Shown here piece by piece: positions 716-20,117 of a DNA stretch of 22,682 bases (position 1 is the stretch's first letter; every line of letters starts with the position of its first letter). The notes below the pieces were generated by a model. That model saw nothing but the letters and a program-made list of their open reading frames with translations. It ran no database searches and was not told the origin of the DNA. Made by a program: the position numbers and the translations under genes. The DNA comes from a bacterium (GTDB taxonomy: Bacteria > Vulcanimicrobiota > Xenobia > Xenobiales > JADMJV01). The stretch spans positions 64,001 through 86,682 of the forward strand of contig JADMJV010000021.1 of the NCBI GenBank assembly GCA_018780265.1. Direction: 5' to 3'.

Positions 716-1381
716 CTAAAGGGTCAGGTCGACGTGTACGCTGCCCTTGGCCGGCACGTCGATCACTTTGGTCACGGCCGGCAATCGGGGATGCCAGGCT
801 TTGATCACGTGTTTGCCGGCGGGCACGTTGTCCAGCCTGAACTGATGCCCGGCATCGGGGGAGGCAAAAAAGCCACTGTCGAGCACCAATAGATAGGCGT
901 TCATTTCGGGATGAATGGCGCAGAAAAGCTCAACGATTCCGGCCTGGGGAAAGGTGATTTCGCGCGACTCCCCCTGAGGATATTCGGGCAGATGAAAGGG
1001 CCGGCACTCCGATTGGGAGTAGACCGAGTGGAAGATGGAGTCTCCGTTGACAAATTCCACCGTCGAACCCTGGTAAATGGGCAGCACGTAAGGCGCAAAC
1101 TGGCGATTTTTTTGATCCAGTCTGACCCGCGCCGGTTTGTTCTGGCCTCCCGGCGTGTCCAGCAAAAATATCACCACATTGGCATTTTCATCGATGCGGG
1201 TGGGGTTGCGACTGGGGCCCTGATAAAGGGGACCGCCCACCACTCCCGGGTGGCGCTGCAGACTTCCCTTCGGCTTGCGGCCCAGGGGCGAGCGTATCTC
1301 CACGCTGCCTTCGATCGTTCCAGCCTGGGCCGCCCACGTCAAAACACCGATCAGCACCGCCCCAAGCCAAAGAGTTTTCAC
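716..1381 (-). CDS. Secreted cupredoxin (plastocyanin-fold, type-1 copper site) protein with a C-terminal carboxypeptidase-regulatory-like beta-sandwich domain.
   Basis: The ORF track entry is 716..1468 and starts with a TTG. The only other start-like codon before the signal peptide is the GTG at 1379-1381, which gives MKTLWLGAVLIGVLTWAAQA|GT, a good signal peptide. The motifs GDSIFHSV ... FCAIHPEMNAY match cupredoxin copper ligands (His, Cys, His, Met). The C-terminal PAGKHVIKAWHP...VIDVPAKGSVHVDLTL looks like a CarbopepD_reg-like domain. Confidence 0.6.
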   Translation of the reverse strand: MKTLWLGAVLIGVLTWAAQAGTIEGSVEIRSPLGRKPKGSLQRHPGVVGGPLYQGPSRNPTRIDENANVVIFLLDTPGGQNKPARVRLDQKNRQFAPYVLPIYQGSTVEFVNGDSIFHSVYSQSECRPFHLPEYPQGESREITFPQAGIVELFCAIHPEMNAYLLVLDSGFFASPDAGHQFRLDNVPAGKHVIKAWHPRLPAVTKVIDVPAKGSVHVDLTL

Positions 1382-1456
1382 CTGCGCTGCTACTACGTTG
1401 GCACGGCCTTCCCTTTGGCAAGCAGGCCAGCGGCCGGCCACCGAGAACCGTGGCGG

Positions 1457-3867: not shown

Positions 3868-4830
3868 GTGCGCAAAATTGCCCTCAGGCTTGGACTTCTA
3901 TGCTGCGGATTGGTGGTAGGACTGGTTCTGGCCGAATTGGGCCTGCGCCTGGTCTTTCCCACCGACCTGACCAGTGGTGGCTTTCAGATGAATTTTGCGG
4001 CCGGCACCTTGAACAGTTTCGTGGCCGACGACGAATGCGGGTATTTGCCCAAGACCAACTCGGACGAATATAGCGAATTTGGCTGTCTGCACAACCCATA
4101 CAAACGGGAGAAATCTCCCGGCAAGAAGCGCGTCCTCTTCCTGGGCGACTCGGTTACCCATCGGGGTCGCCTGGTCCGGGCCTTGCAGTGTTGTTACGGG
4201 GACGAGCGCTACGAGTATTGGAATGCCGGTGTAGAAAGTTTTAATACTGCTCAGGAATTGGTGCTGTATCGTCGATTCAACGCCAAGATCAAGCCCGACC
4301 AGGTGATCCTGTCTTTCCATAACAACGATTTTATGCAAACTCCGCTGGTCTTTCATAAAGACGGCCGTCTGCAGATGCTCACCCCTCAGCGTGACCGCAA
4401 GCGCATCAACATGTGGTGGTTCGCCAATAGCTATTTTTATCGCTTTCTGATCGGCCTCTCCTGGCGGGGCGATAGCGAGCAAAAGGCCGTGGAGGTTCGC
4501 CAGACTCTGGCCGACATGCAGGCCCTGATGGCCGAGCAAGAGGTCGATTTTCGAGTCATTCTGCTGCCGCTCATGAAGCCCCTCAAAGACTGGGACGATG
4601 GCGAAAACTGGTCGCGCAAACAGAGCACCGCGATGTTCGAATCCCTCAAGATCCGCAGCTACGATCTGCTCCCGAGCCTGGAAGGCATGCTGGCCAAAGG
4701 CACCGCTGTCGAGGAAGAGGCGGGCGATGCCTGGCATCCCAACGATACGGCCGCGGCGGTCTTCGCTGCCGATCTGCAAAAACAGGGCCTACTTATTCTT
4801 GGTGACGAGAAACTTATCCAAAATCAGTAG
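3868..4830 (+). CDS. SGNH/GDSL-family hydrolase (esterase/acyltransferase-like) with an N-terminal membrane anchor.
   Basis: GTG start. N-terminal TM (IALRLGLLCCGLVVGLVLAELGL). Block I VLFLGDSVT (GDS motif with Ser nucleophile). Block V DAWHPND (DxxH). Confidence 0.65.
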   Translation: MRKIALRLGLLCCGLVVGLVLAELGLRLVFPTDLTSGGFQMNFAAGTLNSFVADDECGYLPKTNSDEYSEFGCLHNPYKREKSPGKKRVLFLGDSVTHRGRLVRALQCCYGDERYEYWNAGVESFNTAQELVLYRRFNAKIKPDQVILSFHNNDFMQTPLVFHKDGRLQMLTPQRDRKRINMWWFANSYFYRFLIGLSWRGDSEQKAVEVRQTLADMQALMAEQEVDFRVILLPLMKPLKDWDDGENWSRKQSTAMFESLKIRSYDLLPSLEGMLAKGTAVEEEAGDAWHPNDTAAAVFAADLQKQGLLILGDEKLIQNQ

Positions 4831-6573
4831 GTCCAGGTCGCTGACGCCAAAGGTGTAAAAGGCGTTTTCGGGACTGGTCACCAGCGGTTCACCGCGCAAG
4901 TTGAGGCTGGTATTCATCAACACGGGCGTGCCGGTGGCCTGGCCAAACTGATGGACGATTTCGTAGTAGAGGGGATTGGATTCGCGATCCACCGTCTGCA
5001 GGCGACCGGTGCCGTTGTGACATACGGCCGGAATTTCGGCGTGGCGCTCTTCGGGGATGGGACTGACCATCAGCATGAAACGCTGTGGGTATTGATTGGC
5101 GGCTTTGTCCAGGGTGAAATAGTCCTGCGCCCGCTCCTCGGTGACTACGGGAGCGAAAGGACGGAAAGCCTCGCGGAATTTGATCTTGGTGTTGACCACT
5201 TCTTGCATCTCAGCCTTACGTGGATCAGCCATGATGGAACGATTGCCCAGGGCTCGCGGCCCCCACTCAAAACGACCCTGGAACAGGGCGATCACCTGGC
5301 CCTTGAGCATGGCCGAAACGGCCCGCTCGGCGATTTTTTCCACTTCATCGACCTGCTCGTGGGGCAGTCCGGCCTTCTCGATGGCCGCCCTCTCTTCGGC
5401 CAGGCTGAACGACTGGCCGTAGTAAGCGTGCTTCATAATGAGCTTGCGCGGCTTCTTGAGCAGCACGTGATACACGTAGAGGGCTGCCCCCAGCGCTCCG
5501 CCCGCATCGCCGGCGTTGGGCTGAATGTAGACTTCGTCAAAGAGCGACTGGCGCATGACGCGACCGTTGGCCACGCTGTTGAGCGCGACACCGCCGGCCA
5601 TGACCAACTTCTTGAGGCCCGTCTTGACCTGCAGAGTATTGGCCATCTTCAAAATCGCTTCTTCGGTGAGCAACTGTAGAGAAGCGGCGACATCTGCGTA
5701 ATACTGGTTGCGACCGGCTGCCTCTTCACGACCCCGGATATCGTCGCCCGTCGACTCGGTGAAGAAGGGGCTTTCCGGCTCACGCGGAGGGCCGAAGAGG
5801 GCCACGAACTTGGAGTTGAAAGCGTCGGTCAGGCTCTCGTGAAAACTGAAGTAATCCATGTTGAGCGAGAAGCTGCCGTCTTCGTGAAGGCGGAAGATGC
5901 GCTCCAACTTCTCCATGTAACGCGGCTTACCGTAAGGCGCCATGCCCATGACTTTATACTCGCCGCTGTTGACCTTAAAGCCCAACCAGGCGGTGAAAAC
6001 CGAGTAGAGCAAACCCAAGGAGTGGGGAAAGCGAATTTCTTCGGTCAGTTCCAACTCGTTGCCGGCACCGGTCGTCCAGTCGCCCTTGGCGGTGCCCATG
6101 GCGGTGGTGGTCCATTCGCCCACGCCATCCAGGGTGAGTACAGCCATCTCCTCAAAGGGAGAGCAGAAGGCGGCACTGGCGGCATGACTGATGTGGTGGT
6201 CCACAAAAAGCAGCTTGTCGTGGGGAAAGTCAGGAAACTGCTTGAGGATATCGCCCTTGACCCAAAGCTTATTGCCAAACCAGGCCAGCATGGCTTCGCG
6301 AAAGTGGCGCCACGACCGGGGGAAGGTGTGCAGATGAGTGAGCAAAATGCGCTGAAATTTGGGCAGGGGCTTTTCGTAGAAGACGATGTAGTCCAGATCT
6401 TTTTGTTGAATGCCGCCTTCTTTCAGGCAATACTCCACCGAGGCGGTGGGGAAGCGATGATCGAATTTAATGCGTGAAAAGCGCTCCTCCTGGGCGGCTG
6501 CAACCAGTTCGCCGTCCATGAGCAGGGCGGCCGCCGAATCGTGATAATAAGCGGAAATTCCCAGGATATTCAT
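4789..6573 (-). CDS. NodU/CmcH-family O-carbamoyltransferase.
   Basis: The family-typical N-terminus MNILGISAYYHDSAAALL is at the internal Met; the ORF track extends to 6630, but the conserved N-terminus argues for 6573. Length is 594 aa with a typical two-domain layout (YrdC/Kae1-like). It overlaps the upstream small ORF in a TGATG stop/start arrangement. Confidence 0.9.
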   Translation of the reverse strand: MNILGISAYYHDSAAALLMDGELVAAAQEERFSRIKFDHRFPTASVEYCLKEGGIQQKDLDYIVFYEKPLPKFQRILLTHLHTFPRSWRHFREAMLAWFGNKLWVKGDILKQFPDFPHDKLLFVDHHISHAASAAFCSPFEEMAVLTLDGVGEWTTTAMGTAKGDWTTGAGNELELTEEIRFPHSLGLLYSVFTAWLGFKVNSGEYKVMGMAPYGKPRYMEKLERIFRLHEDGSFSLNMDYFSFHESLTDAFNSKFVALFGPPREPESPFFTESTGDDIRGREEAAGRNQYYADVAASLQLLTEEAILKMANTLQVKTGLKKLVMAGGVALNSVANGRVMRQSLFDEVYIQPNAGDAGGALGAALYVYHVLLKKPRKLIMKHAYYGQSFSLAEERAAIEKAGLPHEQVDEVEKIAERAVSAMLKGQVIALFQGRFEWGPRALGNRSIMADPRKAEMQEVVNTKIKFREAFRPFAPVVTEERAQDYFTLDKAANQYPQRFMLMVSPIPEERHAEIPAVCHNGTGRLQTVDRESNPLYYEIVHQFGQATGTPVLMNTSLNLRGEPLVTSPENAFYTFGVSDLDLLILDKFLVTKNK

Positions 6574-6788
6574 CAGCCTTGCCTTTGCGCTTCCGCCAGC
6601 GTGTGTTCGGCCTTGGGACGATGAATCCACGAAGAGACCTGTTTGTAGCCGTTCAGCCCCAGGGCATCGCCTTGCAAGCGGGCCAGCAGTGCAAAGATGG
6701 GCACCACAAACACGTAAAAGGCGGTGAGAATAAGCCGGGACTGAAATTCACCCACGGCCTGAAAAGATTCCTTGACGTAGCTCAACAT
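6573..6788 (-). CDS. Small (71 aa) single-TM protein translationally coupled to the carbamoyltransferase.
   Basis: ATG at 6788 is preceded by GAAGGA with a 5-nt spacer. There is a hydrophobic helix LILTAFYVFVVPIFALLA. Its stop codon shares one nucleotide with the carbamoyltransferase ATG (TGATG at 6571-6575 on the minus strand). Confidence 0.45.
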   Translation of the reverse strand: MLSYVKESFQAVGEFQSRLILTAFYVFVVPIFALLARLQGDALGLNGYKQVSSWIHRPKAEHTLAEAQRQG

Positions 6789-6803
6789 AGGGGTCCTTCG
6801 TGG

Positions 6804-6965
6804 TTAAAAGAGAGTGTAGAGGAACGGGCCCAGACCCGTAGAGTTGCCGAAGACGATAATGCCGACAAAGACCAGCATAATGCAGAGCATGGGGATCAGC
6901 CACCACATCTTCTCTTTCCAAAGAAAACCCATCAATTCGCGGAGGGTAAGCATTGCCGACTTCAT
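6804..6965 (-). CDS. DUF5989 / SxtK-like small membrane protein (53 aa).
   Basis: MKSAMLTLRELMGFLWKEKMWWLIPMLCIMLVFVGIIVFGNSTGLGPFLYTLF. The ...KWWL(I/A)P...G...PF(I/L)YTLF pattern is the hallmark, from memory, of the small proteins found next to NodU/CmcH carbamoyltransferases (SxtK-type). Confidence 0.7.
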   Translation of the reverse strand: MKSAMLTLRELMGFLWKEKMWWLIPMLCIMLVFVGIIVFGNSTGLGPFLYTLF

Positions 6966-6972
6966 TGGTCTT

Positions 6973-7383
6973 TCAGTCCTTCGGTAAAATTGCGTCGCTG
7001 GCGTCGCTCTGCATGCTGCCGAGCAGGATAGCCGCAATGGCCAGAATCTCGCCAAATAGAACACAGTGCTTCAAACTGGTGGTGCTCCCGGGCGTCAATG
7101 GCCAGGCCAGGTTGTGATTGAAGATCATCACGACTTTGGTCAAAATCCAGCAATTGAAACCAAAAAAGAAGCCCACCATCAAATAGCCGAGCAAAGTGGT
7201 GCGATGCTGGCACAGGGCGAAGAAAATACCCAGTACTGCGCAGGCCACCAGGCCCGGTACGGCGCTTGCTAACGGCACCTTGGCTGCCAAAGTAAAGGCT
7301 GCGCCCGCCAGTGCGCCAATTAACGCGCCGGCCCAGGCTGGAATGACCAGTTGGCCTATAGATGAATGAGTATCTGCTACCAC
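6973..7383 (-). CDS. Polytopic small membrane protein (136 aa), possibly the SxtJ-like partner of the DUF5989 protein. Tentative.
   Basis: GTG start. Three to four hydrophobic helices (AWAGALIGALAGAAFTLAA; GLVACAVLGIFFALC; LLGYLMVGFFFGFNCWIL; VLFGEILAIAAILLG). The stop lies 7 nt upstream of the DUF5989 start on the same strand. Confidence 0.45.
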   Translation of the reverse strand: MVADTHSSIGQLVIPAWAGALIGALAGAAFTLAAKVPLASAVPGLVACAVLGIFFALCQHRTTLLGYLMVGFFFGFNCWILTKVVMIFNHNLAWPLTPGSTTSLKHCVLFGEILAIAAILLGSMQSDASDAILPKD

Positions 7384-7433
7384 AGGCGGCCCGTTCGCTA
7401 GTCAATCCGAGCGTTCCTGTGTATACTGCGATC

Positions 7434-7997
7434 ATGAGATTGAATTGTCTTCTTTCCTTGCTGCTATTGACTTCGACCGGTTGGGCTCACCCTCTGGCCG
7501 ACCAGGCCAAGGCCATCGAAGAGCAATCGCTGGTATTGAGACAACGCATGGGTCCCGACAATCCCAACCTGACCTGGGGTCAAAAGATGGCTCTGGACGA
7601 CATTACCCGGTTGGCCAGTGCCGCTTCGGCAGCCCGCCAGGCCCTCACTCCCGAGGACGTGGATTGGGATTCATGCCGGGCCACCTTGGTTGAGATGCAG
7701 GTGGCCGGAAATCGCGTCCGCATGAGTTTGCCGGTTTCGGTGCTCGACAGCGAAGGCCAGACCCTGGGACAGCAAATGGTGCTGCAAGTTCAGGAGATTG
7801 ACAAAGAGGCGCGTGCTGAGAGAGACCAACACTTTGACCGCCAGGTCGCATCCGCACGGCCCAGCATCTCTTTTGGCCTGGGCTTTGGCAACTACTGGGG
7901 CTCGCCGTGGCGTAGTTACGGCTACGGCTTTGGGGGGGGATGTTACCCCGGCTACTTTGGCGGTTACCGAGGCGGCTACGGCCGCCCCTGCCGCTAA
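7434..7997 (+). CDS. Secreted hypothetical protein with a C-terminal Gly/Tyr-rich low-complexity tail.
   Basis: Internal ATG at 7434 gives the signal peptide MRLNCLLSLLLLTSTGWA|HP. The tail is SFGLGFGNYWGSPWRSYGYGFGGGCYPGYFGGYRGGYGRPCR. A TATACT hexamer sits 6 nt upstream of the ATG. Confidence 0.55.
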   Translation: MRLNCLLSLLLLTSTGWAHPLADQAKAIEEQSLVLRQRMGPDNPNLTWGQKMALDDITRLASAASAARQALTPEDVDWDSCRATLVEMQVAGNRVRMSLPVSVLDSEGQTLGQQMVLQVQEIDKEARAERDQHFDRQVASARPSISFGLGFGNYWGSPWRSYGYGFGGGCYPGYFGGYRGGYGRPCR

Positions 7998-8512
7998 TTC
8001 TGCTCGACCAGGATGTCCAAAACCAACTCGCCCAATCTGGCGATTTGGCCGGCCTCGACTTCCAGGTGATCAGACCAGATCTCTTTGTCCCCGATACCGG
8101 CTACCCGCACCAGGTAGGTACGGTCGGACCCCGGCAGGCGCAGTTCAAAGGAGCCGTCTTCGCGGGTAAAAGTCCAGTAACGCTCTTTCTCAAATCGAGC
8201 TTCGACAGCCAGACCCGGGGCGGGACTTGAGCCGCTGGCGGTGGCAATACTGCCTTTGAAACCGGTATCGGAGTCAAGAGGCTGCTCCCAGCCAAACTCA
8301 AGGTCGGCGTGGTCGCCCAGGGCCTTGGTCAACATCAAGTGTCCGTCAGGCGACAACCCGGCCTGCGAAAGCAACTCCAGCGCCGTTTCCTGAATGTAAT
8401 AGTCAACGTCGCTCTCGGTCTCTTCTTCAAGAATCTCTTGGATGACCGTAAAGTCTGCGCGACTGATTTCACCCAGAACAGTACCGGTCGTTCGATCGGA
8501 AAGTATCAGCAT
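7994..8512 (-). CDS. Acidic hypothetical protein (172 aa). The C-terminal half is a beta-sandwich-like region (LVRVAGIGDKEIW...).
   Basis: Complete ORF with ATG start. It is the last gene of the minus-strand operon, 29 nt after the ACT-protein stop. Its stop codon overlaps the stop of the convergent 7434..7997 gene (CTAA). Confidence 0.5.
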   Translation of the reverse strand: MLILSDRTTGTVLGEISRADFTVIQEILEEETESDVDYYIQETALELLSQAGLSPDGHLMLTKALGDHADLEFGWEQPLDSDTGFKGSIATASGSSPAPGLAVEARFEKERYWTFTREDGSFELRLPGSDRTYLVRVAGIGDKEIWSDHLEVEAGQIARLGELVLDILVEQN

Positions 8513-8541: not shown

Positions 8542-9072
8542 TCAAACCGAAACCGGCTCGACCTCTACATCTACGTTCAAATCGTCACCCACTTGCTGGA
8601 GACGGCGACGCAAGGCAGAAAGCGACAGCGAGGCAGGAGCGCTGATGCGCATTTGCATTTCAAAAAGCGGCACACCGCTGTAGGGGGCATTGACCAGCTG
8701 GGACTCCAGGTTGTCCACCGATACGCCCTGCTCCACCAGATGATGAACCAGGTCGTGGACGATCCCTTCGTGATCGGCCCCACGCACGGCCACTTGCAGA
8801 GGCAGCATGCCGGCGTGACTGCGCCTCAGAGAGGTGGACTTGTGGGTCATAAGCAGATCTAATTGGCTGGCCACGCTCTCTATTTCTCCCGTCAATCCCG
8901 GCACCTGAGCCTCATCCACCGAACACAGGAACATCATGGCGAACTCGCCGCCAAGCACGGCCATCCTCGAATCTTCCAGGTTGGCCTGGAATTTGGCGAG
9001 TGATTCGGTCACCCGGTCGACCAGACCGGTGCGGTCGGGACCCAAAAGAGAAAATACCAGATACTGCTTCAT
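8542..9072 (-). CDS. Tandem ACT-domain regulatory protein (GcvR / glycine-cleavage-repressor-like).
   Basis: Internal ATG gives MKQYLVFSLLGPDRTGLVDRVTESLAKFQANL (ACT beta-alpha-beta opening). A second ACT-like repeat is LPLQVAVRGADHEGIVHDLVHHLVEQGVSV. Length is 176 aa. Confidence 0.7.
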   Translation of the reverse strand: MKQYLVFSLLGPDRTGLVDRVTESLAKFQANLEDSRMAVLGGEFAMMFLCSVDEAQVPGLTGEIESVASQLDLLMTHKSTSLRRSHAGMLPLQVAVRGADHEGIVHDLVHHLVEQGVSVDNLESQLVNAPYSGVPLFEMQMRISAPASLSLSALRRRLQQVGDDLNVDVEVEPVSV

Positions 9073-9114
9073 GCCTGGCGCTTCTCTGTCGACCCTCGTG
9101 TTCCTACGCAATCT

Positions 9115-10023
9115 TTATGTGTGACTGAGACCCGACTCCAGGGTGCGAAAGTATTCCACCGTCGCCAGTTCGCGCAAGCAATAGGCCTGGTGCGAGGTCA
9201 GCGCAACCTCCGGGTTGGCGTCGGCGGGCAGTTGACTGCGCAGATAGCGCTCCCAGAAGCCGCCCAGATTGCACATTCGGGCTACCGCCAGGCGCGGGGG
9301 ATGCAGTCCGGTCGAAAATCGCGAGCGCAGGCGAGAGTGCTTTTCCACATAGATTCTGGCCGAGCGGGCCTTGGCCCGGGCCTGAGCTAAAGCTCCGGTA
9401 ATATTGGCCCGAGTAGGCGGCCTTTTGATGTGAAAGCCGATGGCCTTATAGTTGTTGTGCTTTTTAAGTCCAATGGCCATCAAGCGCAGGCCTAGCTCCT
9501 GATCCTCCCAGCCATACTCTTTAAAGTCCTCATCAAACAGGCCGGCTTCCTTGAGGTGCTGCAACTTGACCGAGACGTTGCTGGTCCAGAAGAAGGACGT
9601 AGAGATGTCAGCTGCGGTAAATTTCGGCGCCACCGGTCGCACAGGTTCGGAGATGTGATTGACCCAGCCGTTGCATACGCAGCGGTCAAACTGGTCGTGA
9701 ATGACCAGGTGCTCCTCAAGCAGACGAGGGTCGGCCAGCACGTCATCGTCGATATACAGCATCACCCGCCCACGAGCGGCACGAATCCCCGTATTGCGGG
9801 CGGCCGCCAGGGCCGAGTGGGGCTGCCACAAGTAAGTCAGGGGGTAGGGCAGCTCAGACCGAACCTCGCGCACCATATCGGCGGTGCCATCCTCGGAGCC
9901 ATCGTCCACCAGCACCACTTCAAAACGCTCGTGGCCAATCGTCTGGTCACACAGCGACAGCAGCACCGTTTTCAGAGTGGCCTGTCGGTTGCGGCTGCAA
10001 AGGCCCACCGTGATGTCGATCAT
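9115..10023 (-). CDS. Family-2 (GT-A fold) glycosyltransferase.
   Basis: MIDITVGLCSRNRQATLKTVLLSL...VVLVDDGSEDGT...RNTGIRAARG...YIDDD (DxD). Its start overlaps the stop of the upstream GT2 gene as ATGA (10020-10023). Confidence 0.8.
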   Translation of the reverse strand: MIDITVGLCSRNRQATLKTVLLSLCDQTIGHERFEVVLVDDGSEDGTADMVREVRSELPYPLTYLWQPHSALAAARNTGIRAARGRVMLYIDDDVLADPRLLEEHLVIHDQFDRCVCNGWVNHISEPVRPVAPKFTAADISTSFFWTSNVSVKLQHLKEAGLFDEDFKEYGWEDQELGLRLMAIGLKKHNNYKAIGFHIKRPPTRANITGALAQARAKARSARIYVEKHSRLRSRFSTGLHPPRLAVARMCNLGGFWERYLRSQLPADANPEVALTSHQAYCLRELATVEYFRTLESGLSHT

Positions 10024-10853
10024 GAGGAGAGTTCCTTCCAGCCCGCCTGCAGATAGGCCCGCTCCACTTCCAGCCAGCGGCGCACCAGGGCCGGCGCGGG
10101 CAGGCGAGAAAGGAGCGAATTCTTCCAGCGATTGGCAAAATGCAGGCCCGATCGCAACCACATGCGCAACGAAGGATAGCGGCGATATAGTTGGGCCGCG
10201 GCCTGCCCGTCCAGGGCGGCTACCCGCAGACGCTGCTGGTGATCGAGAGGCGGCTTCCAGTGATAGACATAAGTGTGCACGTCAAAAACTCGGGCTACTT
10301 TGAGCCGTTTCAGTCGAACGCCCAGTTCGGCGTCTTCCCAGCGGGCAAAGGATGGGTCGAAGAGACCGGATGTCATCAACAGCCGGCGTTCCAGGGAAGC
10401 ATTGCTGGTACACAGGTAGTTTTTGGAGAAATGCTTCCAGGGTTGACCCAGCGGCGGTAGGGGAGGGTAGAGCGGCTTGGGCACATTGACCACCGGGCCG
10501 CGCACCAGGCAGCCGGGATTGGCCGCCAAAAGGTGAGCGTGGCGCTGCAAAAAATCGGGCGGGATCAAGACGTCGTCGTCCATAAACAGAATGTGCCGAC
10601 CCCGGGCGGCTTCGATAGCCCGGTTACGAGCTCGACTGGTGCCTCCGTGGTCTTGTTGCAGGGCTCGTAGCGGCAACTGACTCTCAAATTCCCGCAAGAC
10701 TTCGGCGGTGTTGTCCTGGCTGCCATCGTCGACCACCAGGATTTCAAAATCGTCGAAGGGGTAATTTTGCAAAGTCAGATGCTGCAGCGTGAGACGCAAG
10801 GCCTGACTGCGATTGCGCGTGGGGATAACGAGGCTCAGGTTCACGGGCGCCAT
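10020..10853 (-). CDS. Family-2 (GT-A fold) glycosyltransferase.
   Basis: LSLVIPTRNRSQALRLTLQHL...ILVVDDGSQDNTAEVL...RNRAIEAARG...FMDDD. The ATG immediately follows the TAA of the upstream PPTase gene (TAAATG). Confidence 0.8.
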   Translation of the reverse strand: MAPVNLSLVIPTRNRSQALRLTLQHLTLQNYPFDDFEILVVDDGSQDNTAEVLREFESQLPLRALQQDHGGTSRARNRAIEAARGRHILFMDDDVLIPPDFLQRHAHLLAANPGCLVRGPVVNVPKPLYPPLPPLGQPWKHFSKNYLCTSNASLERRLLMTSGLFDPSFARWEDAELGVRLKRLKVARVFDVHTYVYHWKPPLDHQQRLRVAALDGQAAAQLYRRYPSLRMWLRSGLHFANRWKNSLLSRLPAPALVRRWLEVERAYLQAGWKELSS

Positions 10854-11552
10854 TTACGGACAGGCACGCCAGTGTCCTTCCGGTCCAAACAAATAGGCCC
10901 GAACCGGCTTCTGGGTAGGGCACACCAGGGCCACACTTACCTCGGGGAAGGGACAGTGGGGACGCGACAGATGCCAGGGTAGTGGCCTGCCTTGCAGGTC
11001 AAACAGTCCCCACCGATCGTCAAAATAGGTGAGGAACTGGTCCAGTGGATGGGTCAGGCCGTCACCCAGGGCTTTGATGTGGGCCTCCTTGGCTGTCCAC
11101 ACCTCGAAAAAGAAATGACGAGGGTTTTCGGACTTCTCTAACTGGAGGGCCTCCGCCGAGGCGAAAAACCTCTGTCCCAGCTTGAGAAACTCGACGCGCC
11201 GTCGCCGGTCTTCCAGGTCCAGTCCCAACTCGCCGTGGGCCGCAATGACCACCCCTGCATAGCCTTCAGAATGGCTTAAATTAAAGGTGCAACTGCCGTC
11301 TCCCAGATAGGGTTTTCCATGAGCAGCCTTGTCCCAGTGAAGATCCTCAGGAGGTCGATCCAGCCACTGGCTGACCAGACGCCGTAACAGGGCGCAGGCC
11401 ACCTGTTGACGGCGTCGGTGGTGGGGAAAAACCAGGCGCGCACAACGCTGCCGGTCGCTGTCGCTGAGCCAGGGGTCCAACTCGTCCTCGGTCCAGCCCG
11501 GATCGTCCAGTTCAAACCAGACCAGGCTGGTCTGCGAGTCAGCCTTCAACAA
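10854..11552 (-). CDS. Sfp/HetI-type 4'-phosphopantetheinyl transferase.
   Basis: FNLSHSEGYAGVV (motif 2) and WTAKEAHIKALG, the W/F-x-x-K-E-A-x-x-K PPTase motif 3. Length ~230 aa. Confidence 0.8.
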   Translation of the reverse strand: MLKADSQTSLVWFELDDPGWTEDELDPWLSDSDRQRCARLVFPHHRRRQQVACALLRRLVSQWLDRPPEDLHWDKAAHGKPYLGDGSCTFNLSHSEGYAGVVIAAHGELGLDLEDRRRRVEFLKLGQRFFASAEALQLEKSENPRHFFFEVWTAKEAHIKALGDGLTHPLDQFLTYFDDRWGLFDLQGRPLPWHLSRPHCPFPEVSVALVCPTQKPVRAYLFGPEGHWRACP

Positions 11553-12408
11553 CCAGTTGCAACGCCGTCTTGCCTACGTAGAGCAGGTCGAATGGACGGA
11601 TCTTAACCACCGAGGTGAGGGGCATTTCGGCGATCCACTCGGTGCCGTCGGTGCGCCTTTCCAGGGTGATGGCGGCGGCCACCGGGCGGGTGAACATGAC
11701 CTCGAAGGCTTTCTCCAGTTCACGCCATTTCCAGGCCATGCAGCGGTAGGGCAGAGCGTCCTCTTCGATCGTCAGGTCCTGATCCCACCAACTGGGGGTA
11801 TCGGGAAGAGGCTCGACACGGGTGCCGCCCAACTGAATCTGGAAACCTGTCATGGGCAGCCGCAGCCCCTGTTGGGCACCACCGAGTATCTCTATAAACA
11901 TGCTGGGCCGCGTCGACAGGGCAATTTTCCGTGAGGCCGACTTGGTATCGCCGCGAGACTCTCCCTCGCGTATGGGATTCCGATAGGCCAGGTCGTGGTT
12001 TACAACCGTGGTGCCGGTTCGGCGCGCTTCGTGAATCTGGCCGATGCGTTCGGGCGCCACACCCCCAAAGCGGAAATCAGCCTGCTGAATATCCAGCAGG
12101 CTGCTGCCTACCTTCACATGGTCTCCTATTTTCAACAGGGCTTCTTTGATGGGGAGACCGTTCACCTCGGTAGGATTGGTGTCTGATCGATGGGCCAGGC
12201 GATAGGCTTTGAGTTCGTCGTCCCAGGTCATGTCGGCGTGAATTCGGGAGATTTGGGGGTCGTTGAGGAGCACCCAGCCCGGCGCCCGATCTCCAGGGGT
12301 GCGGGCCCGCCCAATGGTCACTTCGGCGCTGTCCAGGGGGAACGTTCGACCCTTGTCGGGGCCTTGAGAAACCCGAACCTGCAGACCACAACTGAACATT
12401 AAAGCCAA
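11539..12408 (-). CDS. FHA-domain protein with an uncharacterised C-terminal domain.
   Basis: VTIGRARTPGDRAPGWVLLNDPQISRIHADMTWDDELKAYRLAHRSDTNPTEVNG is a canonical FHA (GR...SR.HA...NGT.VNG). TTG start at 12408 lies 5 nt after GGGAGGA. ATG at 12399 is the alternative. Confidence 0.8.
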   Translation of the reverse strand: MALMFSCGLQVRVSQGPDKGRTFPLDSAEVTIGRARTPGDRAPGWVLLNDPQISRIHADMTWDDELKAYRLAHRSDTNPTEVNGLPIKEALLKIGDHVKVGSSLLDIQQADFRFGGVAPERIGQIHEARRTGTTVVNHDLAYRNPIREGESRGDTKSASRKIALSTRPSMFIEILGGAQQGLRLPMTGFQIQLGGTRVEPLPDTPSWWDQDLTIEEDALPYRCMAWKWRELEKAFEVMFTRPVAAAITLERRTDGTEWIAEMPLTSVVKIRPFDLLYVGKTALQLVVEG

Positions 12409-12569
12409 AACAATCCTCCCTACGACGAACTCCCCGAAGGTTGGGGATTAGCCAAGGTTTTTGCCGAGACCTGCCGTCCCGGCCCAACCTTTTTGGGGAG
12501 TTTCTTTTCGTGGCCGCCAGTCGGGTGGATTCAAGGAAATGGCGGGCCTGTCTAAGAACATTTGCGGCC
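12409..12569. promoter_or_regulatory. Divergent intergenic region between the two FHA genes. It presumably carries both promoters. Contains a GGGAGGA Shine-Dalgarno for the minus-strand gene.
   Basis: 161-bp non-coding gap between opposed starts. GGGAGGA lies 5 nt upstream of the TTG at 12408 (minus strand). Confidence 0.3.
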
Positions 12570-13373
12570 ATGAGTGATGGGACCCGGGAATACAACTATC
12601 AAGATGTGGCCGACCGGTCCGCGCGCTATCCGGTGGTGGGAGCCCTCAATTTGCTGCTGGGCGAGAAGCCTGGCCGGCTGGTTCTGCTCGATGCGCAAAA
12701 TATCAAGATCGGTCGCGATGAAAGCTGCGACCTTCGCTTTGAAATCGATGGATTGAGTCGCAGCCACGCCTTGATCGAACGTCAGGCAGGGGGCGAGTAT
12801 GTGATTACCGACCTGCATTCCACCAACGGACTCTTCGTCAATGGCTACCAGGCCCATCAGCAGGCGTTGCACGACGGTGACCGCATCGCGCTGGGGCCCA
12901 ACCTGGTTTTCTGTTTCCGCGTTTTCCAGTTGGACGAAGCCATGGCCCTGGAAGGTCTGAGCGCAAGTAGTTCGCGTGACGTTGCCACCGGAGCCATCAC
13001 GGCCCCTTTCTTTGAGGAGATGTTGCAGTTCGAATTGGAGTTGGGTCAACGCCGCAATTTCGACGTGGCCCTCATCCATGTGCAGTGGGGCGCCTTTCAA
13101 CAGGGGCATGAAGAACGCCGGGTCCTGGATCTGTACGGCTATCTCGAATCGGTGAAGAAGCCCGGCTCCCTAACCGCACGACTGGGGGCACGCACCTTTG
13201 CCCAATCCATGAGCTACCTCTCCCGCTCTGAGGTAGACCGCCATACCGAGCAACTCTCCCGCCATCTGACCGAAAAGTTCAAGGACGCAACTTTTTTTGT
13301 GGGCTCTGCCTGCAGCCGCGAACTGGCCACTCCTAGCGCCACTAAACTGATTCAAAAAGCGTCTCAGCGCTGA
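12570..13373 (+). CDS. FHA domain fused to a degenerate (probably catalytically inactive) GGDEF-like domain.
   Basis: FHA: IKIGRDESCDLRFEIDGLSRSHALIERQAGGEYVITDLHSTNGLFVNG. GGDEF-like: DVATGAITAPFFEEMLQFELELGQRRNFDVALIHVQWGAF...LTARLGARTFAQ, where GARTF replaces GGDEF. Start chosen at the internal ATG 12570; the track's 12441 is a TTG. Confidence 0.75.
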   Translation: MSDGTREYNYQDVADRSARYPVVGALNLLLGEKPGRLVLLDAQNIKIGRDESCDLRFEIDGLSRSHALIERQAGGEYVITDLHSTNGLFVNGYQAHQQALHDGDRIALGPNLVFCFRVFQLDEAMALEGLSASSSRDVATGAITAPFFEEMLQFELELGQRRNFDVALIHVQWGAFQQGHEERRVLDLYGYLESVKKPGSLTARLGARTFAQSMSYLSRSEVDRHTEQLSRHLTEKFKDATFFVGSACSRELATPSATKLIQKASQR

Positions 13374-13374
13374 G

Positions 13375-14637
13375 ATGTGGCCCTTTGCCGAGCTCAAGGC
13401 GCTGGCCGGACAGGCCGGCAAGGTCGAGTTTCAGGCCGGAGAGATGCTTTTTCGTCAAGGCGATGCCGGCGACAAAGTCTTTCTTATCCGCCGCGGATTG
13501 GTAGAGATTTTTGCCGAAAATTCGGGCCGTCGCCGTCGCCTCAATTTGCGCGGCCGAGGCGAAGTTATCGGTGAGATGGCCCTGCTCGACGGCTTGGGAC
13601 GCTCGGCCAGCGCCGTTGCTCGAACTCAATTACAGGCCCGAACCCTGAGTCGTGACGTTTTTGAGCAACTTCTAACTCACAGACCTGCCCTGGTGCGCAG
13701 CCTGACCAGCCACCTCAGTCACCGCATGCGCGAATTGCAGGGCACTCTGAGCAGCGAACTGGACAAACGCGATCAGGAAGGCAAAGCCACCGGATTGTTC
13801 TCGATCGGTCCCTTTCTACTGGCCGAAAAATTGGGGGAGGGGGGGATGGGGGTGATTTACAGCGCCAGTCATCAGCGCACCGGGCACCCCTACGCCGTCA
13901 AAGTGCTGTCTGTCTCCAGCGAAGAGCAGAGAGCCCGATTTACTCGCGAGTGTGAATTTATGGCCCGCATGGTTCACCCCAACATCGTGCGCATCGATTC
14001 GGCCGGGACCGAAGGCTACTACGGTTACATGGCCATGGAGTTGCTGCGCGGTGAAACCTTGGAGCAGCGGCTCAAGCGTGGGCCCTTGAGCGAAGTCGAG
14101 GTGAGTCGCTGGTTTGTACCGGCCATGGAGGCTTTGGGCTACGCCCACGATATGGGGGTCATGCACCGCGACGTCAAGCCGGCCAATCTCTTTCTGACCC
14201 TGGATGGCACGCTCAAAATGCTCGATTTTGGGATCGCACGCCGCATCAACGGTCCCGAACTCACGGTGGCCGGCCGTTTTTTTGGCACCCCTCAATACCT
14301 TGCCCCGGAGCGCATCGGTGGTCAATCCAAAGCTCAAGAACGACAGTCTGACCAGTATTCCCTGGGCATTTCCATGTATGAGGCAGCGACCGGTCGCTGC
14401 CCCTTTGATTTCGACGATGTGGCCGAAGTGCTGGCCGCCCACCTGCATCGCTGTCCCACCCTGCCCAGTACTATCGCGGCCGTAGACCATGAGGTGGAGT
14501 TGGTCATCATGCGCCTGCTGGCCAAAGAGCCGTCCCGCCGCTATCCCAGCTTTGCAGCCGCCGCCCAGGCCCTGGCAGCGGCCACTTCGGGCAGCGTAAA
14601 ATCTATGACCACCGACTTTGGCACTCGCCGGGACTGA
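13375..14637 (+). CDS. Cyclic-nucleotide-binding domain fused to a Hanks-type Ser/Thr protein kinase.
   Basis: N-terminal cNMP-binding fold: FQAGEMLFRQGDAGDKVFLIRRGLVEIF...GRGEVIGEMALL...RSASAVA. Kinase: GEGGMGVIYSA (G-loop), AVKVL (Lys), HRDVKPANLFL, DFGIAR, GTPQYLAPE. The ATG is 1 nt after the upstream TGA. Confidence 0.9.
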   Translation: MWPFAELKALAGQAGKVEFQAGEMLFRQGDAGDKVFLIRRGLVEIFAENSGRRRRLNLRGRGEVIGEMALLDGLGRSASAVARTQLQARTLSRDVFEQLLTHRPALVRSLTSHLSHRMRELQGTLSSELDKRDQEGKATGLFSIGPFLLAEKLGEGGMGVIYSASHQRTGHPYAVKVLSVSSEEQRARFTRECEFMARMVHPNIVRIDSAGTEGYYGYMAMELLRGETLEQRLKRGPLSEVEVSRWFVPAMEALGYAHDMGVMHRDVKPANLFLTLDGTLKMLDFGIARRINGPELTVAGRFFGTPQYLAPERIGGQSKAQERQSDQYSLGISMYEAATGRCPFDFDDVAEVLAAHLHRCPTLPSTIAAVDHEVELVIMRLLAKEPSRRYPSFAAAAQALAAATSGSVKSMTTDFGTRRD

Positions 14638-14639
14638 CT

Positions 14640-16208
14640 TTACTTGCGGTGGTCCTTGAGAAATTGGCGCCAGCCCTCGGGTAGATGAGTGGCCGGTCGC
14701 CGATCAAAGGAGAGGGTGCCGTGGCCCATCATGGCCAGCACCGTTTGATTAAAAGCCTCGCCGGTGCGCTTGAGCTCGGGACAGGAGGCCGCCAGGCGCG
14801 GCTCACGCTGGAGTTGAGCCAGGAAGCTCCCCAGATCCACTACCGACTGAAAGTCATCAGCATCGGTCGTTTCGCTCTGATCCAGGCAGCGGCGCAGGGT
14901 TTCCTGGTGTCCCCCCTGGCTGAGACGGGTGAGACTGCGCCCCAGTCGGTCCAGGCTGGGCAACAACTGCTTTTGCAGCGCCTGCAGATCGACAGCCACC
15001 AGCGATTTGGCGGGCCGGCCCCGGGCGGCCGAACGCACCAGAGAGGTGCCAAATTCACGCGGGTTGGCAGGGAAGGAACTCTGACCAAACATCGACTCCA
15101 GGGGAAAACCAAAGCCTCGCACGGTGTGCTCGGAAACCACCGCCACCCGAGCCGATCCGGTCAACTTGCTGAGCGACTCCAGTTGCCCGCCGTTGCAAAC
15201 GTCGAGCACAATAGCCTCGGCCCCTTGCACGGTGCGGGCCAGGGCGTCAAAGGACAACCCGGCAGCACTTTGCTGCAGCCCGTGACCGGAGACGTAAACC
15301 ACATGGCGAGAGTTGGGCCATTGGCCGAGGTTTTTTTGCCACAGTTGCTCAAATTGAGACGCTCGGGGGCCATTTCCTACCACTTGATGGGACACATGCT
15401 TCCAGGTCGGGGCCACTTCGTCGTGCTGAGCCACCTTTTGTTTCAGCGCTTGCAGATGTTGGCCGGCGCTCTCGGCGCCGACCTTGGCCCCCAAGCCCCC
15501 TGCCAGCGTGAGCAGACCGCCCAAAACCAGGAGGGGTACGCTCAGAGGGCCTCCCTGCAAGGCCTGCACACAGGCGGTGCCGGCCACCACCAGGCCGGCT
15601 GCCCCCATCGCCCCCATGACCACTGGCAAAGCCGTATGCACGGCATCGCTGGCCACTCCTCCCGCCGCCGACAATCCGCTGACCTCAACCGGTGCCTGCG
15701 TCTTCTCGAGCATCTTTTCAAAGCGAGCGGGTTGGCCCTTGACGTGGCGAGCGATGTCGGGCACCGAGGCATCCCCGAAATAGGTGACCAACAGCGGTTG
15801 ATCGGAAGTCTGGAAAGTGTCCGAAGCGGCACTCCCCATGACCCCAAGCGACAGGGCAGGGTCGTTGATGGTGCCAAACTGCAGGCTCCCGCCGTCGCGC
15901 AGCGGCGTCCACTCATCGCTGGACGCTTTACGACCGTCGATCAGCGTGGTGCCGGTATGCAGGTCGCGCACCCAGAGCTGCCCCTCTTTCCACTGCCCCT
16001 CCGCCTGTTTGGGCTGCCCGGCCCAGCGCACCTGGCAATCAGGGTCCTGTCCAATGGTAAAGACCGAACCATCGGTAGGAAAACGCAGCGAGCCGCCATC
16101 TGGCGTCAGCAGACGCTGCCGCTCAGGCTGCAGGCTCAGCGAATGTCCGATGGACCTGGGCTGATTCCCCGGATTGGATTGCACACGCATAGACTCAGAG
16201 AATATCAC
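14640..16208 (-). CDS. FHA-domain membrane protein with a C-terminal caspase/metacaspase-like (clan CD, peptidase C14-like) domain.
   Basis: N-terminal FHA: SVFTIGQDPDCQVRWAG...LWVRDLHTGTTLIDGRK. There are two hydrophobic segments in the middle (PVVMGAMGAAGLVVAGTACVQAL; LLVLGGLLTLAGGLGA). The C-terminal blocks HVVYVSGHG and AIVLDVCNGG fit the metacaspase His (YSGHG) and Cys (D-x-C-x-x-G) dyad pattern. Confidence 0.7.
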   Translation of the reverse strand: MIFSESMRVQSNPGNQPRSIGHSLSLQPERQRLLTPDGGSLRFPTDGSVFTIGQDPDCQVRWAGQPKQAEGQWKEGQLWVRDLHTGTTLIDGRKASSDEWTPLRDGGSLQFGTINDPALSLGVMGSAASDTFQTSDQPLLVTYFGDASVPDIARHVKGQPARFEKMLEKTQAPVEVSGLSAAGGVASDAVHTALPVVMGAMGAAGLVVAGTACVQALQGGPLSVPLLVLGGLLTLAGGLGAKVGAESAGQHLQALKQKVAQHDEVAPTWKHVSHQVVGNGPRASQFEQLWQKNLGQWPNSRHVVYVSGHGLQQSAAGLSFDALARTVQGAEAIVLDVCNGGQLESLSKLTGSARVAVVSEHTVRGFGFPLESMFGQSSFPANPREFGTSLVRSAARGRPAKSLVAVDLQALQKQLLPSLDRLGRSLTRLSQGGHQETLRRCLDQSETTDADDFQSVVDLGSFLAQLQREPRLAASCPELKRTGEAFNQTVLAMMGHGTLSFDRRPATHLPEGWRQFLKDHRK

Positions 16209-16229: not shown

Positions 16230-16793
16230 TCACGACGCAGTAGGAGTGCCCAGAGGCGCGAACAGGTCCTTTAGATCCAGGGTAAAGCCCCCATAACTCC
16301 AGCGATCCTCCTCGGCCAGGGCTGCTTCAAGCCGATAAGCCCCCCGGTCCAAGCGCAGATGCTCCAGCGTGCGCTCCTCGGGATCGACCAGCACATACTC
16401 CGCTACCCCACTCGCGGCATAGCGATTGAGCTTGCGAACCCGGTCGTGGGAGGCATTCGAGGGCGAGAGAACCTCTACCAACATCTGCGGGATGCCTTCA
16501 ATAAAGTTAGTCTTCACCATGCCAAACTGTTCCGGCAGCAGAAAGATTAAATCGGGCTGCACCGGGCTACAGCCGGGCATCAACAGGTCCATCGGGGCAT
16601 CGAAGACGGCCCCCAGGCCTCTCTGCTCCAGTTGATAAAGAAAAAATTGCAGTCGTCGTGACACAATCTGATGAACGGTTCGGGGACTGGGAGACATGAA
16701 GAGTTCTCCGTCGATAACTTCGTAGCGCCTGCCATCCTCGGGCAGGCCTAGATAATCCTCATAGGTCCAACGTCGGGGCTGAGAGAGGGTCAT
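16230..16793 (-). CDS. Uma2-family (DUF820) putative PD-(D/E)xK endonuclease.
   Basis: MTLSQPRRWTYEDYLGLPEDGRRYEVIDGELFMSPSP...VQPDLIFL...PQMLVEVLSPSN...YAASGVAEYVLVDP is a classic Uma2 layout. Start taken at the internal ATG 16793. Confidence 0.8.
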   Translation of the reverse strand: MTLSQPRRWTYEDYLGLPEDGRRYEVIDGELFMSPSPRTVHQIVSRRLQFFLYQLEQRGLGAVFDAPMDLLMPGCSPVQPDLIFLLPEQFGMVKTNFIEGIPQMLVEVLSPSNASHDRVRKLNRYAASGVAEYVLVDPEERTLEHLRLDRGAYRLEAALAEEDRWSYGGFTLDLKDLFAPLGTPTAS

Positions 16794-16891
16794 AGACCTC
16801 CATTTCACCACGCCTGTGCCATAGCCTGCTCGACTGGCATTGCAATCTGCCGCCAGGTAGGAATGCAGCTGGACTTGAGGTATCTTCAAAT
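16794..16891. promoter_or_regulatory. Divergent intergenic region between the Uma2 endonuclease and the DUF1998 helicase.
   Basis: 98-bp gap between opposed start codons. No convincing -35/-10 could be assigned by eye. Confidence 0.25.
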
Positions 16892-19354: not shown

Positions 19355-19438
19355 AAGCCATAGGTGCGATGCCCGCATAGTTCGTATCCATTGCGCCAGC
19401 GTAAATAGCCGCCATCACTCCCACAGTCTGAATCGAAA

Positions 19439-20015
19439 TCACCAGCACATTGCCCACCACCCAAGCAGAGCTCCCAGGGCCGCACCCGCCAAGATTTGGC
19501 GGAACCAATGCTCCAGTTGGGGGAGGCCCTGGTCACCAATTTTTCCGGAGGAAACGGCATCTTTGATGGGACCGATTACGGGAGCGTAAATCTGCTGAGC
19601 CAATCGCGTCACAAGAAAAACGAAATTATAGATTGACAGCGCCGTCGCCACCCTCCCGGTCAACACTGCGGATACTCGGCTCGAAATGGCACTGGAAGCC
19701 AACAGTGATACAACAGCATTGAGCGCCACTACCGCCCAAAGAGCTTGCACAAGAGAGTGTCCGTGTTGAGCCAGTGACTGGGTGGCACTGCGAATGATCC
19801 GCCAGTGCGCACAATCCCCCAACCGTCCAAATGGCGGTGGCGGCGACATTGGTCAGCAGGAAGGCCGCTGGCACGCCTTCCAGGCAAAACAATTTGATAC
19901 CCAGACTCCCCGGTGGTCTCAGCGAGCGCAGCAAAGTGCGCCACCCTTGCGGAGTCAACAGGCGGAGCAAAACTCTGAGCATCGATTGGCGGTGAGTATC
20001 TCCTTGGATATCCAT
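19439..20015 (-). pseudogene. Possible frameshifted and truncated N-terminal membrane-domain remnant of an ABC exporter. Low confidence.
   Basis: Two overlapping minus-strand ORFs lie in different frames (19626..20015 and 19439..19849). Concatenated, they read like the start of a type-I ABC exporter TMD: MLRVLLRLLTPQGWRTLL...LFCLEGVPAAFLLTNVAATAIW // LWAVVALNAVVSLLASS...GRVATALSIYNFVFLVTRLAQQ...ILAGAALGALLGWWAM. No ATPase domain follows. Confidence 0.25.
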
Positions 20016-20117
20016 CGACGTCGCCCTTTTTCCCCGTCCAGATGGTCCCCTGGTTCGGTCTCAGCAGGGGCCGCTGCGAGTGGCGCGAAAGCGGATCAGG
20101 TGTTACGTCACCTTCCA

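Follow-up and report, generated by a model that had tools for sequence, protein, structure and literature searches.

An Sfp-type phosphopantetheinyl transferase within a glycosyltransferase operon of an uncultured Vulcanimicrobiota bacterium, a candidate trans-acting enzyme

What is the role of a phosphopantetheinyl transferase (PPTase) encoded in an operon of glycosyltransferases, with no carrier protein in sight? This question is raised by a 22.7-kb stretch of contig JADMJV010000021.1 (positions 64,001 to 86,682), the whole of which is called the window here. The listing of open reading frames (ORFs) and direct reading of the minus strand gave six co-directional genes, which encode an FHA-domain protein (FHA1), the PPTase, two family-2 glycosyltransferases (GT2A and GT2B), a protein with a pair of ACT domains and a hypothetical protein (hyp172); the window reaches about 8 kb beyond one end of the operon and about 10 kb beyond the opposite end. 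The initial annotation had offered two alternatives, namely that the PPTase acts in trans on distant carrier proteins or that the operon makes a phosphopantetheine-dependent glycoconjugate. Action in trans is the alternative favoured here, as the GT2 pair occurs without a PPTase in sister clades and the PPTase-linked loci form one clade, whereas the glycoconjugate found no positive support. On balance, the gene probably encodes a trans-acting, possibly housekeeping Sfp-type PPTase that rides on a cell-envelope glycan operon.

The PPTase (232 amino acids (aa); positions 10854-11552, minus strand) matches the Pfam families ACPS (PF01648; E 1.8e-13, residues 109-181) and AASDHPPT_N (PF22624; E 8.6e-8, residues 29-105), both above the cut-off, and has the two-domain AASDHPPT_N plus ACPS architecture of about 220-240 aa that is typical of Sfp-type (group II) PPTases. 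In the PDB, Sfp (1QR0) is the best match by sequence, at E 1.9e-14. When 19 homologues, the most distant at 30% identity, were aligned, the motifs GKP, FNLSHS, GxDxE and WTxKEAxxK proved invariant or nearly so; they correspond to G79-K80-P81, N91-L92-x-H94-S95, G110-x-D112-x-E114 and W152-T153-x-K155-E156-A157-x-x-K160 of the operon enzyme, and the motif residues and those contacting Mg and coenzyme A (CoA) align to Sfp, in which the Mg2+ ligands are D107, E109 and E151. The AlphaFold2 model has a predicted local distance difference test score (pLDDT) of 93 and a predicted template modelling score (pTM) of 0.89. Foldseek matched it to 4MRT_A, the complex of Sfp with CoA and a peptidyl carrier protein (PCP), with E 1.4e-16 and TM-scores of 0.77/0.80 over 224 columns, and to AASDHPPT with a TM-score of 0.79, and its pseudo-dimeric alpha/beta fold is superposable on Sfp. 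Because the motifs are invariant or nearly so and the model superposes on Sfp-CoA-PCP, the operon PPTase is apparently a complete, canonical Sfp-type enzyme and is predicted to be active. Hence the PPTase call, for which failure in a domain search had initially been considered, stands up in Pfam and NCBIfam searches as well as in motif and fold comparisons.

Similar to Sfp of Bacillus subtilis, Sppt of Synechocystis, PcpS of P. aeruginosa and PptT of M. tuberculosis, the operon PPTase is a protein of about 230 aa with a two-lobed pseudo-dimeric fold, and it shares the motifs common to Sfp-type enzymes, GKP, FN(I/L)SHS, G(I/L)D(I/L)E and W-x-x-KE(A/S)-x-x-K, while its identity to Sfp is 21% over the structural alignment. 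Sppt, PcpS and PptT are stand-alone PPTases that act in trans, and they resemble the operon enzyme in being encoded away from any carrier. Unlike all four, the operon PPTase sits translationally coupled in an FHA/GT2 operon, with TTG or CTG starts. The best NCBIfam model is HetI of Nostoc (NF042922; E 3.9e-26), which scores 91.8 bits against an equivalog cut-off of 370 bits. HetI and the operon PPTase have the W-KEA subtype in common, and HetI serves a pathway ending in a glycolipid; however, the operon PPTase is not an equivalog of HetI, has no hgl-type polyketide synthase (PKS) genes nearby and does not belong to a cyanobacterial host. The W-x-x-KEA-x-x-K subtype that it displays has been described for actinomycete PPTases (PMC6042109).

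The PPTase is tightly fitted into the operon. The 14-nt overlap, TAAATG and ATGA that the initial annotation listed as junctions were all read in the sequence. The PPTase starts at a TTG (11552) within the end of FHA1 (286 aa; 11539-12399, minus strand, from a probable ATG at 12399, the longest ORF starting at a TTG at 12408), so that it overlaps the FHA1 stop codon (11539-11541) by 14 nt, or by 11 nt if a second TTG at 11549 is used. The PPTase stop directly abuts the ATG of GT2A (277 aa; 10020-10853, minus strand) as TAAATG, and GT2A overlaps GT2B (302 aa; 9115-10023, minus strand, with a longest ORF extending to 10161) by ATGA at 10020-10023. Gaps of 42 nt and 29 nt then separate GT2B from the ACT-ACT protein (176 aa; minus strand, 8542-9072 from an ATG or 8542-9111 from a TTG) and the latter from the last gene, hyp172 (172 aa; 7994-8512, minus strand). 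Tight coupling of the genes was seen in all relatives. In a simple scan, internal promoters and terminators in the operon were not in excess of the shuffled expectation, and no Rfam match to an RNA element was found anywhere in the window. Judged from gene layout, the operon promoter probably lies at 12400-12569, between the ATG of FHA1 and that of a divergent FHA2/kinase gene pair (12570, following the FHA2 gene as called on the identical contig L001); the simple scan gave no promoter-like site there.

The unusual PPTase start appears to be genuine. According to the AlphaFold2 model and the alignment with Sfp, the fold opens with a beta-strand made of residues 8-14 (VWFELD), and the long N-terminus is therefore taken to be real. 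In nine relatives there is no ATG, GTG or TTG in the PPTase frame before this strand, and the only candidate is a CTG that runs into the FHA1 stop to form CTGA (relatives are numbered with the prefix L; L004 9932-9935, L005 9944, L007 9905, L009 9995, L010 9989, L012 9989, L013 9998, L095 1026 and L098 52), whereas TTG serves as the start in the window (11539-11552 region) and in L011. Public gene calls give PPTases of 198-212 aa that begin at downstream ATGs and lose the first beta-strand; because the start is a CTG or TTG overlapping the upstream stop, these calls are too short. From this arrangement we infer that PPTase translation is coupled to FHA1 by termination-reinitiation and that expression is weak, which would be in keeping with an enzyme required in catalytic amounts.

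The lack of a carrier protein was assessed for the neighbourhood of the operon, to which the claim is confined. The 20 large window ORFs gave no match to PP-binding, AMP-binding, ketosynthase or condensation domains, and none of the 190 six-frame window ORFs of 55-160 aa matched PP-binding. A home-made carrier-protein hidden Markov model and phmmer searches with seven diverse carriers, in which two positive controls were recovered at E 5e-29 and 1e-14, found nothing among the six-frame ORFs of the window and 17 PPTase-linked loci (275 kb), and the precomputed Pfam tables of relatives contain no PP-binding, AMP-binding or ketosynthase domain. As initially proposed, therefore, an acyl carrier protein (ACP), PCP, PKS, nonribosomal peptide synthetase (NRPS) or adenylating enzyme is lacking nearby, in the window as well as in the 17 related loci, and the relatives with 10-kb flanks do not have a carrier gene just outside either. 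The PPTase is thus not an in-cluster PKS/NRPS-associated enzyme in the window or in the 17 syntenic or related loci, whose flanks reach up to 10 kb. The hallmark of a carrier, a four-helix bundle whose helix II begins with (D/H)S(L/I), was likewise found neither in hyp172 nor in the FHA1 C-terminus nor in the small ORFs. Several candidates were considered individually and rejected: the FHA1 C-terminus is a degenerate FHA rather than a cryptic carrier; the 71-aa and 53-aa ORFs beside a carbamoyltransferase gene encode transmembrane (TM) peptides, the 53-aa one matching DUF5989, rather than ACPs; and a FabH-like gene 6 kb downstream in L101 is not followed by an ACP gene, as would be expected at the start of a fab/ACP cluster.

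The glycosyltransferases provide the second part of the answer. GT2A and GT2B match Glycos_transf_2 (PF00535) at E 5.5e-27 and 1.9e-24, respectively, and are paralogues of 32-36% identity. GT2A carries FMDDD and RWED as read in the sequence, while the DDD (D92-D94) and W172-E173-D174 of GT2B are invariant in 26 GT2B sequences; with the Glycos_transf_2 domain, a DxD motif and an acidic base motif, both have the features of family-2 (GT-A, inverting) glycosyltransferases. No TM segments were predicted in either, and by sequence both are soluble enzymes of the GT-A fold. For both, the closest PDB entry is the E. coli K4 chondroitin polymerase (K4CP), an enzyme with two GT-A domains, matched in two stretches each (GT2A E 4.8e-29, GT2B E 6.7e-20), and the best NCBIfam model is Myxococcus EpsD (NF041875), which scores 172.6 bits with GT2A and 132.9 bits with GT2B, under half of the 370-bit equivalog cut-off in both cases. 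K4CP and EpsD also resemble the pair in that DDD and WED are present in both GT2s, and by analogy the coupled GT-A pair could work like a bifunctional polymerase divided over two proteins. In contrast to K4CP and EpsD, GT2A and GT2B are separate polypeptides of about 280-300 aa and fall far below the EpsD cut-off, and sister clades of the GT2 pair add a PMT_2 enzyme of the GT-C type, which K4CP systems lack. Cell-wall genes recur near the module, including SLT and PBP4 (L089), Mur ligases (L093), AnmK (L101) and Amj (window). Because of the soluble GT-A pair, the likeness to K4CP and EpsD, the cell-wall genes nearby and the GT-C partner in sister clades, the product of GT2A and GT2B is most likely a cell-envelope glycan or a lipid-linked intermediate.

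The distribution of these genes among relatives bears on how the PPTase came to lie beside the GT2 pair. The exact PPTase of the window is present on three Logan contigs. For close PPTase homologues of 49-72% identity and the GTDB-representative loci, the NCBI titles name Vulcanimicrobiota with two exceptions among the close relatives, 'Bacterium isolate SZAS-1', which carries no phylum name, and a Burkholderiales title (L013). L013 (CAZYPN010000013.1, 'uncultured Burkholderiales') and the more divergent L092 (JACQGK010000200.1, 'Armatimonadetes') nevertheless show the arrangement typical of Vulcanimicrobiota loci (helicase/FHA/PPT/GT2/GT2/ACT), and their titles likely reflect mis-binning or mis-classification. 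The host is an uncultured member of the Vulcanimicrobiota (Eremiobacterota), probably of or near the class Xenobia. By tblastn with the window proteins, the block from FHA1 to hyp172 is intact in all ten close relatives (L004-L013), and upstream of it all ten carry an MrfA/Hrq1-like helicase gene; a C11-like gene lies between the helicase gene and FHA1 in L004-L006 and L009-L012 and is absent in L007, L008 and L013. Across the block, the PPTase is the least conserved gene (55-67% identity) and GT2B the most conserved (77-81%), with the ACT protein at 75-80% and hyp172 at 72-80%. Contigs with the block include JAXLXS010000011.1 (assembly GCA_046327835.1), JAFEBA010000010.1, JAHBVR010000018.1 and JAFKGI010000015.1. 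The FHA-PPTase-GT2-GT2 order, for which synteny had been in question, thus holds in L004-L013, whereas the adjacency of FHA and PPTase is specific to this clade, since other genes intervene in L092 and L101, where an FHA gene lies a few kb away. Among 75 more distant PPTase loci (at most 45% identity, from other phyla, mostly Acidobacteriota), none shares any of these neighbouring genes.

GT2B homologues (n=759) give a broader view, with orthologues of 55-87% identity across metagenome-assembled genomes labelled Xenobia, those at 55-65% identity being named, for example, Candidatus Xenobia and Candidatus Bruticola (family Xenobiaceae). Three locus types emerged from look-ups of gene context and a scan of metagenomes. 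Type I, PPT-GT2A-GT2B, comprises the clade of the window together with L092, L100, L101, L111 and L119, and within it PPTase identity falls to 35-45%. Type II has no PPTase and consists of an ADP-ribosylglycohydrolase gene on the opposite strand, GT2A-GT2B and then an NTP_transf_3 gene and, where the contig is long enough, an ACT gene; a PMT_2 (GT-C) gene directly follows GT2B in L093, L106 and L113, which also have NTP_transf_3 and ACT, while there is no PMT_2 match in L107 (NTP_transf_3 and ACT) or in L108, which ends inside NTP_transf_3. Type III, GT2A-GT2B-PMT, has neither PPTase nor ACT (L094, L104, L105, L109 and L110). Relatives of Types II and III include JAANMU and JAANMT. In the orthologous GT2A-GT2B pairs without a PPTase, GT2B identity is 56-62%. 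Modules in which PMT_2 or PMT follows GT2A-GT2B are seen at L093 9174-13783 and L094 9096-12413 as well as among L104-L110 and in L113, and in the sister clades, where it is the usual arrangement, this combination looks like a conserved envelope-glycosylation module of the class Xenobia. In a more distant lineage, GT2B is followed by ACT, hyp191 and a lytic transglycosylase gene.

In a neighbour-joining tree of GT2B (no bootstrap), Type I forms a single clade that is sister to Type II, with Type III basal. In the PPTase tree built by the same method, the GT2-linked PPTases stand side by side but unsupported, saturated distances having caused some replicates to fail. As far as these sequences tell, it is the GT2A-GT2B pair that forms the deeply conserved core, and this pair is older than its association with the PPTase. 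Because the PPTase-linked loci are monophyletic in the GT2B tree, the data suggest that one ancestral capture of a PPTase upstream of GT2A suffices. L092 retains the ADP-ribosylglycohydrolase gene immediately upstream of its PPTase, so that the latter looks like an insertion between this gene and GT2A. A gene for a luciferase-like monooxygenase was also observed upstream of the PPTase region in L092 (6366-7361) and L101 (7376-8344) and is absent from the clade of the window; in L101 it runs straight into the PPTase, while in L092 the opposite-strand ADP-ribosylglycohydrolase gene intervenes.

The family assignments of all six operon genes were checked by Pfam and NCBIfam searches, which bore out the initially claimed minus-strand order of FHA, PPTase, GT2, GT2, ACT pair and hypothetical gene. 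FHA1 matches FHA (E 2.7e-8, above the cut-off) and Yop-YscD_cpl (E 2.6e-11) on residues 12-110, and the residues of the phosphothreonine (pThr) pocket, G30-R31, S51-x-x-H54, T74-N75 and N80, are invariant in 11 orthologues, as in a canonical FHA domain. In a PDB profile search the N-terminus is closest to GarA/OdhI/Rv1827 (E 3e-8), and the pThr-binding residues of GarA/OdhI are kept. The last 130 aa of FHA1 can be aligned by hhalign with the profile of the N-terminal FHA (probability 93.6%, E 2e-7) but have lost the pThr-binding residues, and on sequence grounds FHA1 is a tandem FHA protein with a canonical N-terminal and a degenerate C-terminal FHA-like domain. This second domain sets it apart from GarA/OdhI, as does a score of 26 bits against the 200-bit OdhI cut-off. 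The ACT protein matches ACT_6 (E 5e-20, residues 16-88) and, more weakly, ACT_4 (residues 103-174), and in loci of Types I and II an ACT-pair gene is found close to the GT2 genes. The protein has the length and ACT-ACT architecture of GcvR, although it shares no more than the architecture; the GcvR model (PRK11589) gives 61.8 bits over the full length against a cut-off of 267 bits, and no gcv genes or GcvA are found nearby. Of the control by phospho-signalling and amino-acid or other ligands that had been attributed to the operon, the FHA part is plausible given the invariant pThr residues and the GarA/OdhI likeness, while the ACT part remains a guess.

The hyp172 protein is predicted to be cytoplasmic and is lineage-restricted; its model comprises an N-terminal beta-beta-alpha-beta-alpha-alpha-beta domain and a C-terminal beta-sandwich of the transthyretin/CarboxypepD_reg type. 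The N-terminal domain of 76 aa is extremely conserved (DxDYYxQ...LELLSQAGLSPD...LEFGWE) and has no match in Pfam, nor in the PDB by sequence. The gene always lies directly behind the ACT-pair gene, even in a lineage of 43% identity in which a lytic transglycosylase gene comes next (L089-L091).

Taken as a trans-acting enzyme, the PPTase would move 4'-phosphopantetheine from CoA onto carriers encoded elsewhere, such as the fatty-acid ACP and/or PKS/NRPS carriers. Its position would go back to a single ancestral insertion upstream of GT2A, and it may have been kept in place by dependence on transcription of the operon and by translational coupling to FHA1. GT2A and GT2B would form a separate functional module, adding sugars in sequence or alternately to an envelope glycan or lipid-linked intermediate, and FHA1 may connect the operon products with Ser/Thr-kinase signalling. 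A precedent for such a PPTase is SPPT of Synechocystis, an Sfp-type enzyme reported to be the only PPTase of that organism, which serves fatty acid synthesis (PMC5605751). Two points nevertheless weigh against this interpretation. Firstly, PPT, GT2A and GT2B stay adjacent, with 13-nt overlaps to 7-nt gaps, in loci where the PPTase is only 35-45% identical and the flanks are rearranged (L092, L100, L101 and L111), and the persistence of this triad may result from selection on a common function and not from inertia. Secondly, with the GT2B tree unbootstrapped and the PPTase tree without resolution at depth, PPTases may instead have been recruited independently.

This lasting adjacency is in effect the only support for a functional coupling in trans, in which the PPTase primes a distant carrier, the acyl or aminoacyl group borne by that carrier is finally attached to the glycan or glycolipid made by GT2A and GT2B, and co-transcription is an adaptive co-regulation of one envelope pathway. 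Known analogues are HetI for heterocyst glycolipids, NodF for the acylation of Nod factors and DltC for D-alanylation. Besides the tight PPT-GT2A-GT2B junctions that last while PPTase identity drops to 35% and neighbours change, such coupling would agree with translational coupling along the entire operon, with the recurrence of SLT, PBP4, Mur ligase, AnmK and Amj genes near the module and with a NodU-like carbamoyltransferase gene 1.4 kb away in most close relatives. However, none of the 17 linked loci contains a carrier, adenylating or acyl-transfer gene, the sister clades keep the GT2 pair without a PPTase, all linked loci can stem from one event, and L007, L008 and L013 lack the carbamoyltransferase module. 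We therefore regard this coupling, the main rival explanation, as possible but rather unlikely. A stronger form, in which the PPTase-GT2A-GT2B triad is a dedicated, selected unit that, in one clade of bacteria related to Xenobia, makes an envelope glycoconjugate by way of a phosphopantetheine carrier, either encoded elsewhere or non-canonical and within the operon, and FHA1 ties its output to Ser/Thr-kinase signalling, is considered doubtful.

Far less probable still is that the PPTase modifies a serine of an operon protein, either Ser54 in the AGLSPD of hyp172 or a serine of FHA1, to tether an intermediate for the glycosyltransferases through phosphopantetheine. The invariant G-L-S-P-D of hyp172 does stand at a helix start, with Ser54 as N-cap, loosely like the GxDS position of carriers, and hyp172 and the PPTase are both confined to the operon of this lineage; yet the N-terminal topology of hyp172 is not the four-helix carrier fold, the protein gives no PP-binding signal, the C-terminus of FHA1 is FHA-like, and hyp172 occurs with ACT and GT2B in L089-L091, where the contigs are too short to show whether a PPTase is present. 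No PPTase is known to use a non-carrier fold in vivo. Finally, a decaying or inactive paralogue serving as operon filler is hardly credible, since the PPTase, despite being the fastest-evolving gene of the block (as Sfp-type PPTases generally are fast) and having no ATG/GTG start in the window or the ten close-clade relatives examined, keeps its catalytic and CoA-binding motifs in 19 homologues down to 30% identity, an intact reading frame in all loci and a confident, complete Sfp fold in the model.

Other genes of the window lie outside the operon. The divergent FHA2 (267 aa) and cNMP-binding Ser/Thr kinase (420 aa) genes (12570-14637, plus strand; FHA E 4e-18, Pkinase E 1.9e-51, cNMP_binding E 7.7e-21) occur at this position only in the organism of the window; L004-L013 are without the pair, and the C11-like gene abuts FHA1 in seven of them (L004-L006 and L009-L012). 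A Uma2-family nuclease gene (16230-16904, minus strand) is, like the FHA2/kinase pair, an insertion relative to all close relatives. PADLOC models likened the kinase to generic PD-T4-6 kinases and the Uma2 protein to PDC-S03, which is probably just family-level similarity; none of the operon proteins matched a PADLOC defence-system model, and an anti-phage defence role of the operon was rejected on this basis. The gene at 14640-16208 (minus strand) encodes a conserved 522-aa protein that has two TM segments and, at its C-terminus, a weak likeness to Peptidase_C11, with essentially no other family match; it is syntenic in relatives. Matches to Amj, an alternate lipid II flippase, are spread at 18831-20060 (minus strand) over three overlapping ORFs in different frames, with model positions 1-85, 103-167 and 149-180 in inconsistent order, and this amj gene may be frameshifted or disrupted, or may reflect an assembly error.

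On the other side of the operon, positions 4789-7383 (minus strand) encode a NodU/CmcH-type carbamoyltransferase (613 aa), preceded by a 136-aa protein with four TM segments, a 53-aa DUF5989 peptide and a 71-aa TM peptide. This module is kept in most close relatives and absent in L007, L008 and L013, and its small proteins presumably resemble the SxtJ/SxtK proteins found beside O-carbamoyltransferases. A Nod-factor-like system combining GT2, the NodU-like carbamoyltransferase and the PPTase was rejected as the core, as there are no NodA/B/E/F homologues and the module is absent in those three relatives. A convergent gene (7362-7997, plus strand), sharing 4 nt at its stop with the end of hyp172, encodes a secreted-looking protein of about 187-211 aa with a C-terminus rich in Gly, Tyr and Phe (GYGFGGGCYPGYFGGYRGGYGRP); it has 32-67% identity in relatives and no Pfam match. 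Furthermore, a gene at 911-3847 (plus strand) encodes a conserved protein of about 790-978 aa with essentially no family match, which is syntenic in relatives.

As for the wider meaning of the locus, the start-site analysis corrects a systematic mis-annotation, in which public calls truncate the PPTase, and the comparison of relatives defines a conserved GT2A-GT2B module, probably for an envelope glycan, with or without PMT_2, ACT and transthyretin-like genes, across the class Xenobia. A literature search found nothing relevant on PPTases in Eremiobacterota, in family-2 glycosyltransferase operons or in polysaccharide clusters. The locus would gain wider interest only if the PPTase were mechanistically tied to the glycan; a dedicated triad, if true, would connect phosphopantetheinylation with GT2-type glycan synthesis in a way not described before. 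If the ordinary explanation of a trans-acting enzyme is right, this is probably the general PPTase of an uncultured phylum about which little is known, and such an enzyme would be useful for heterologous expression of Eremiobacterota biosynthetic clusters.

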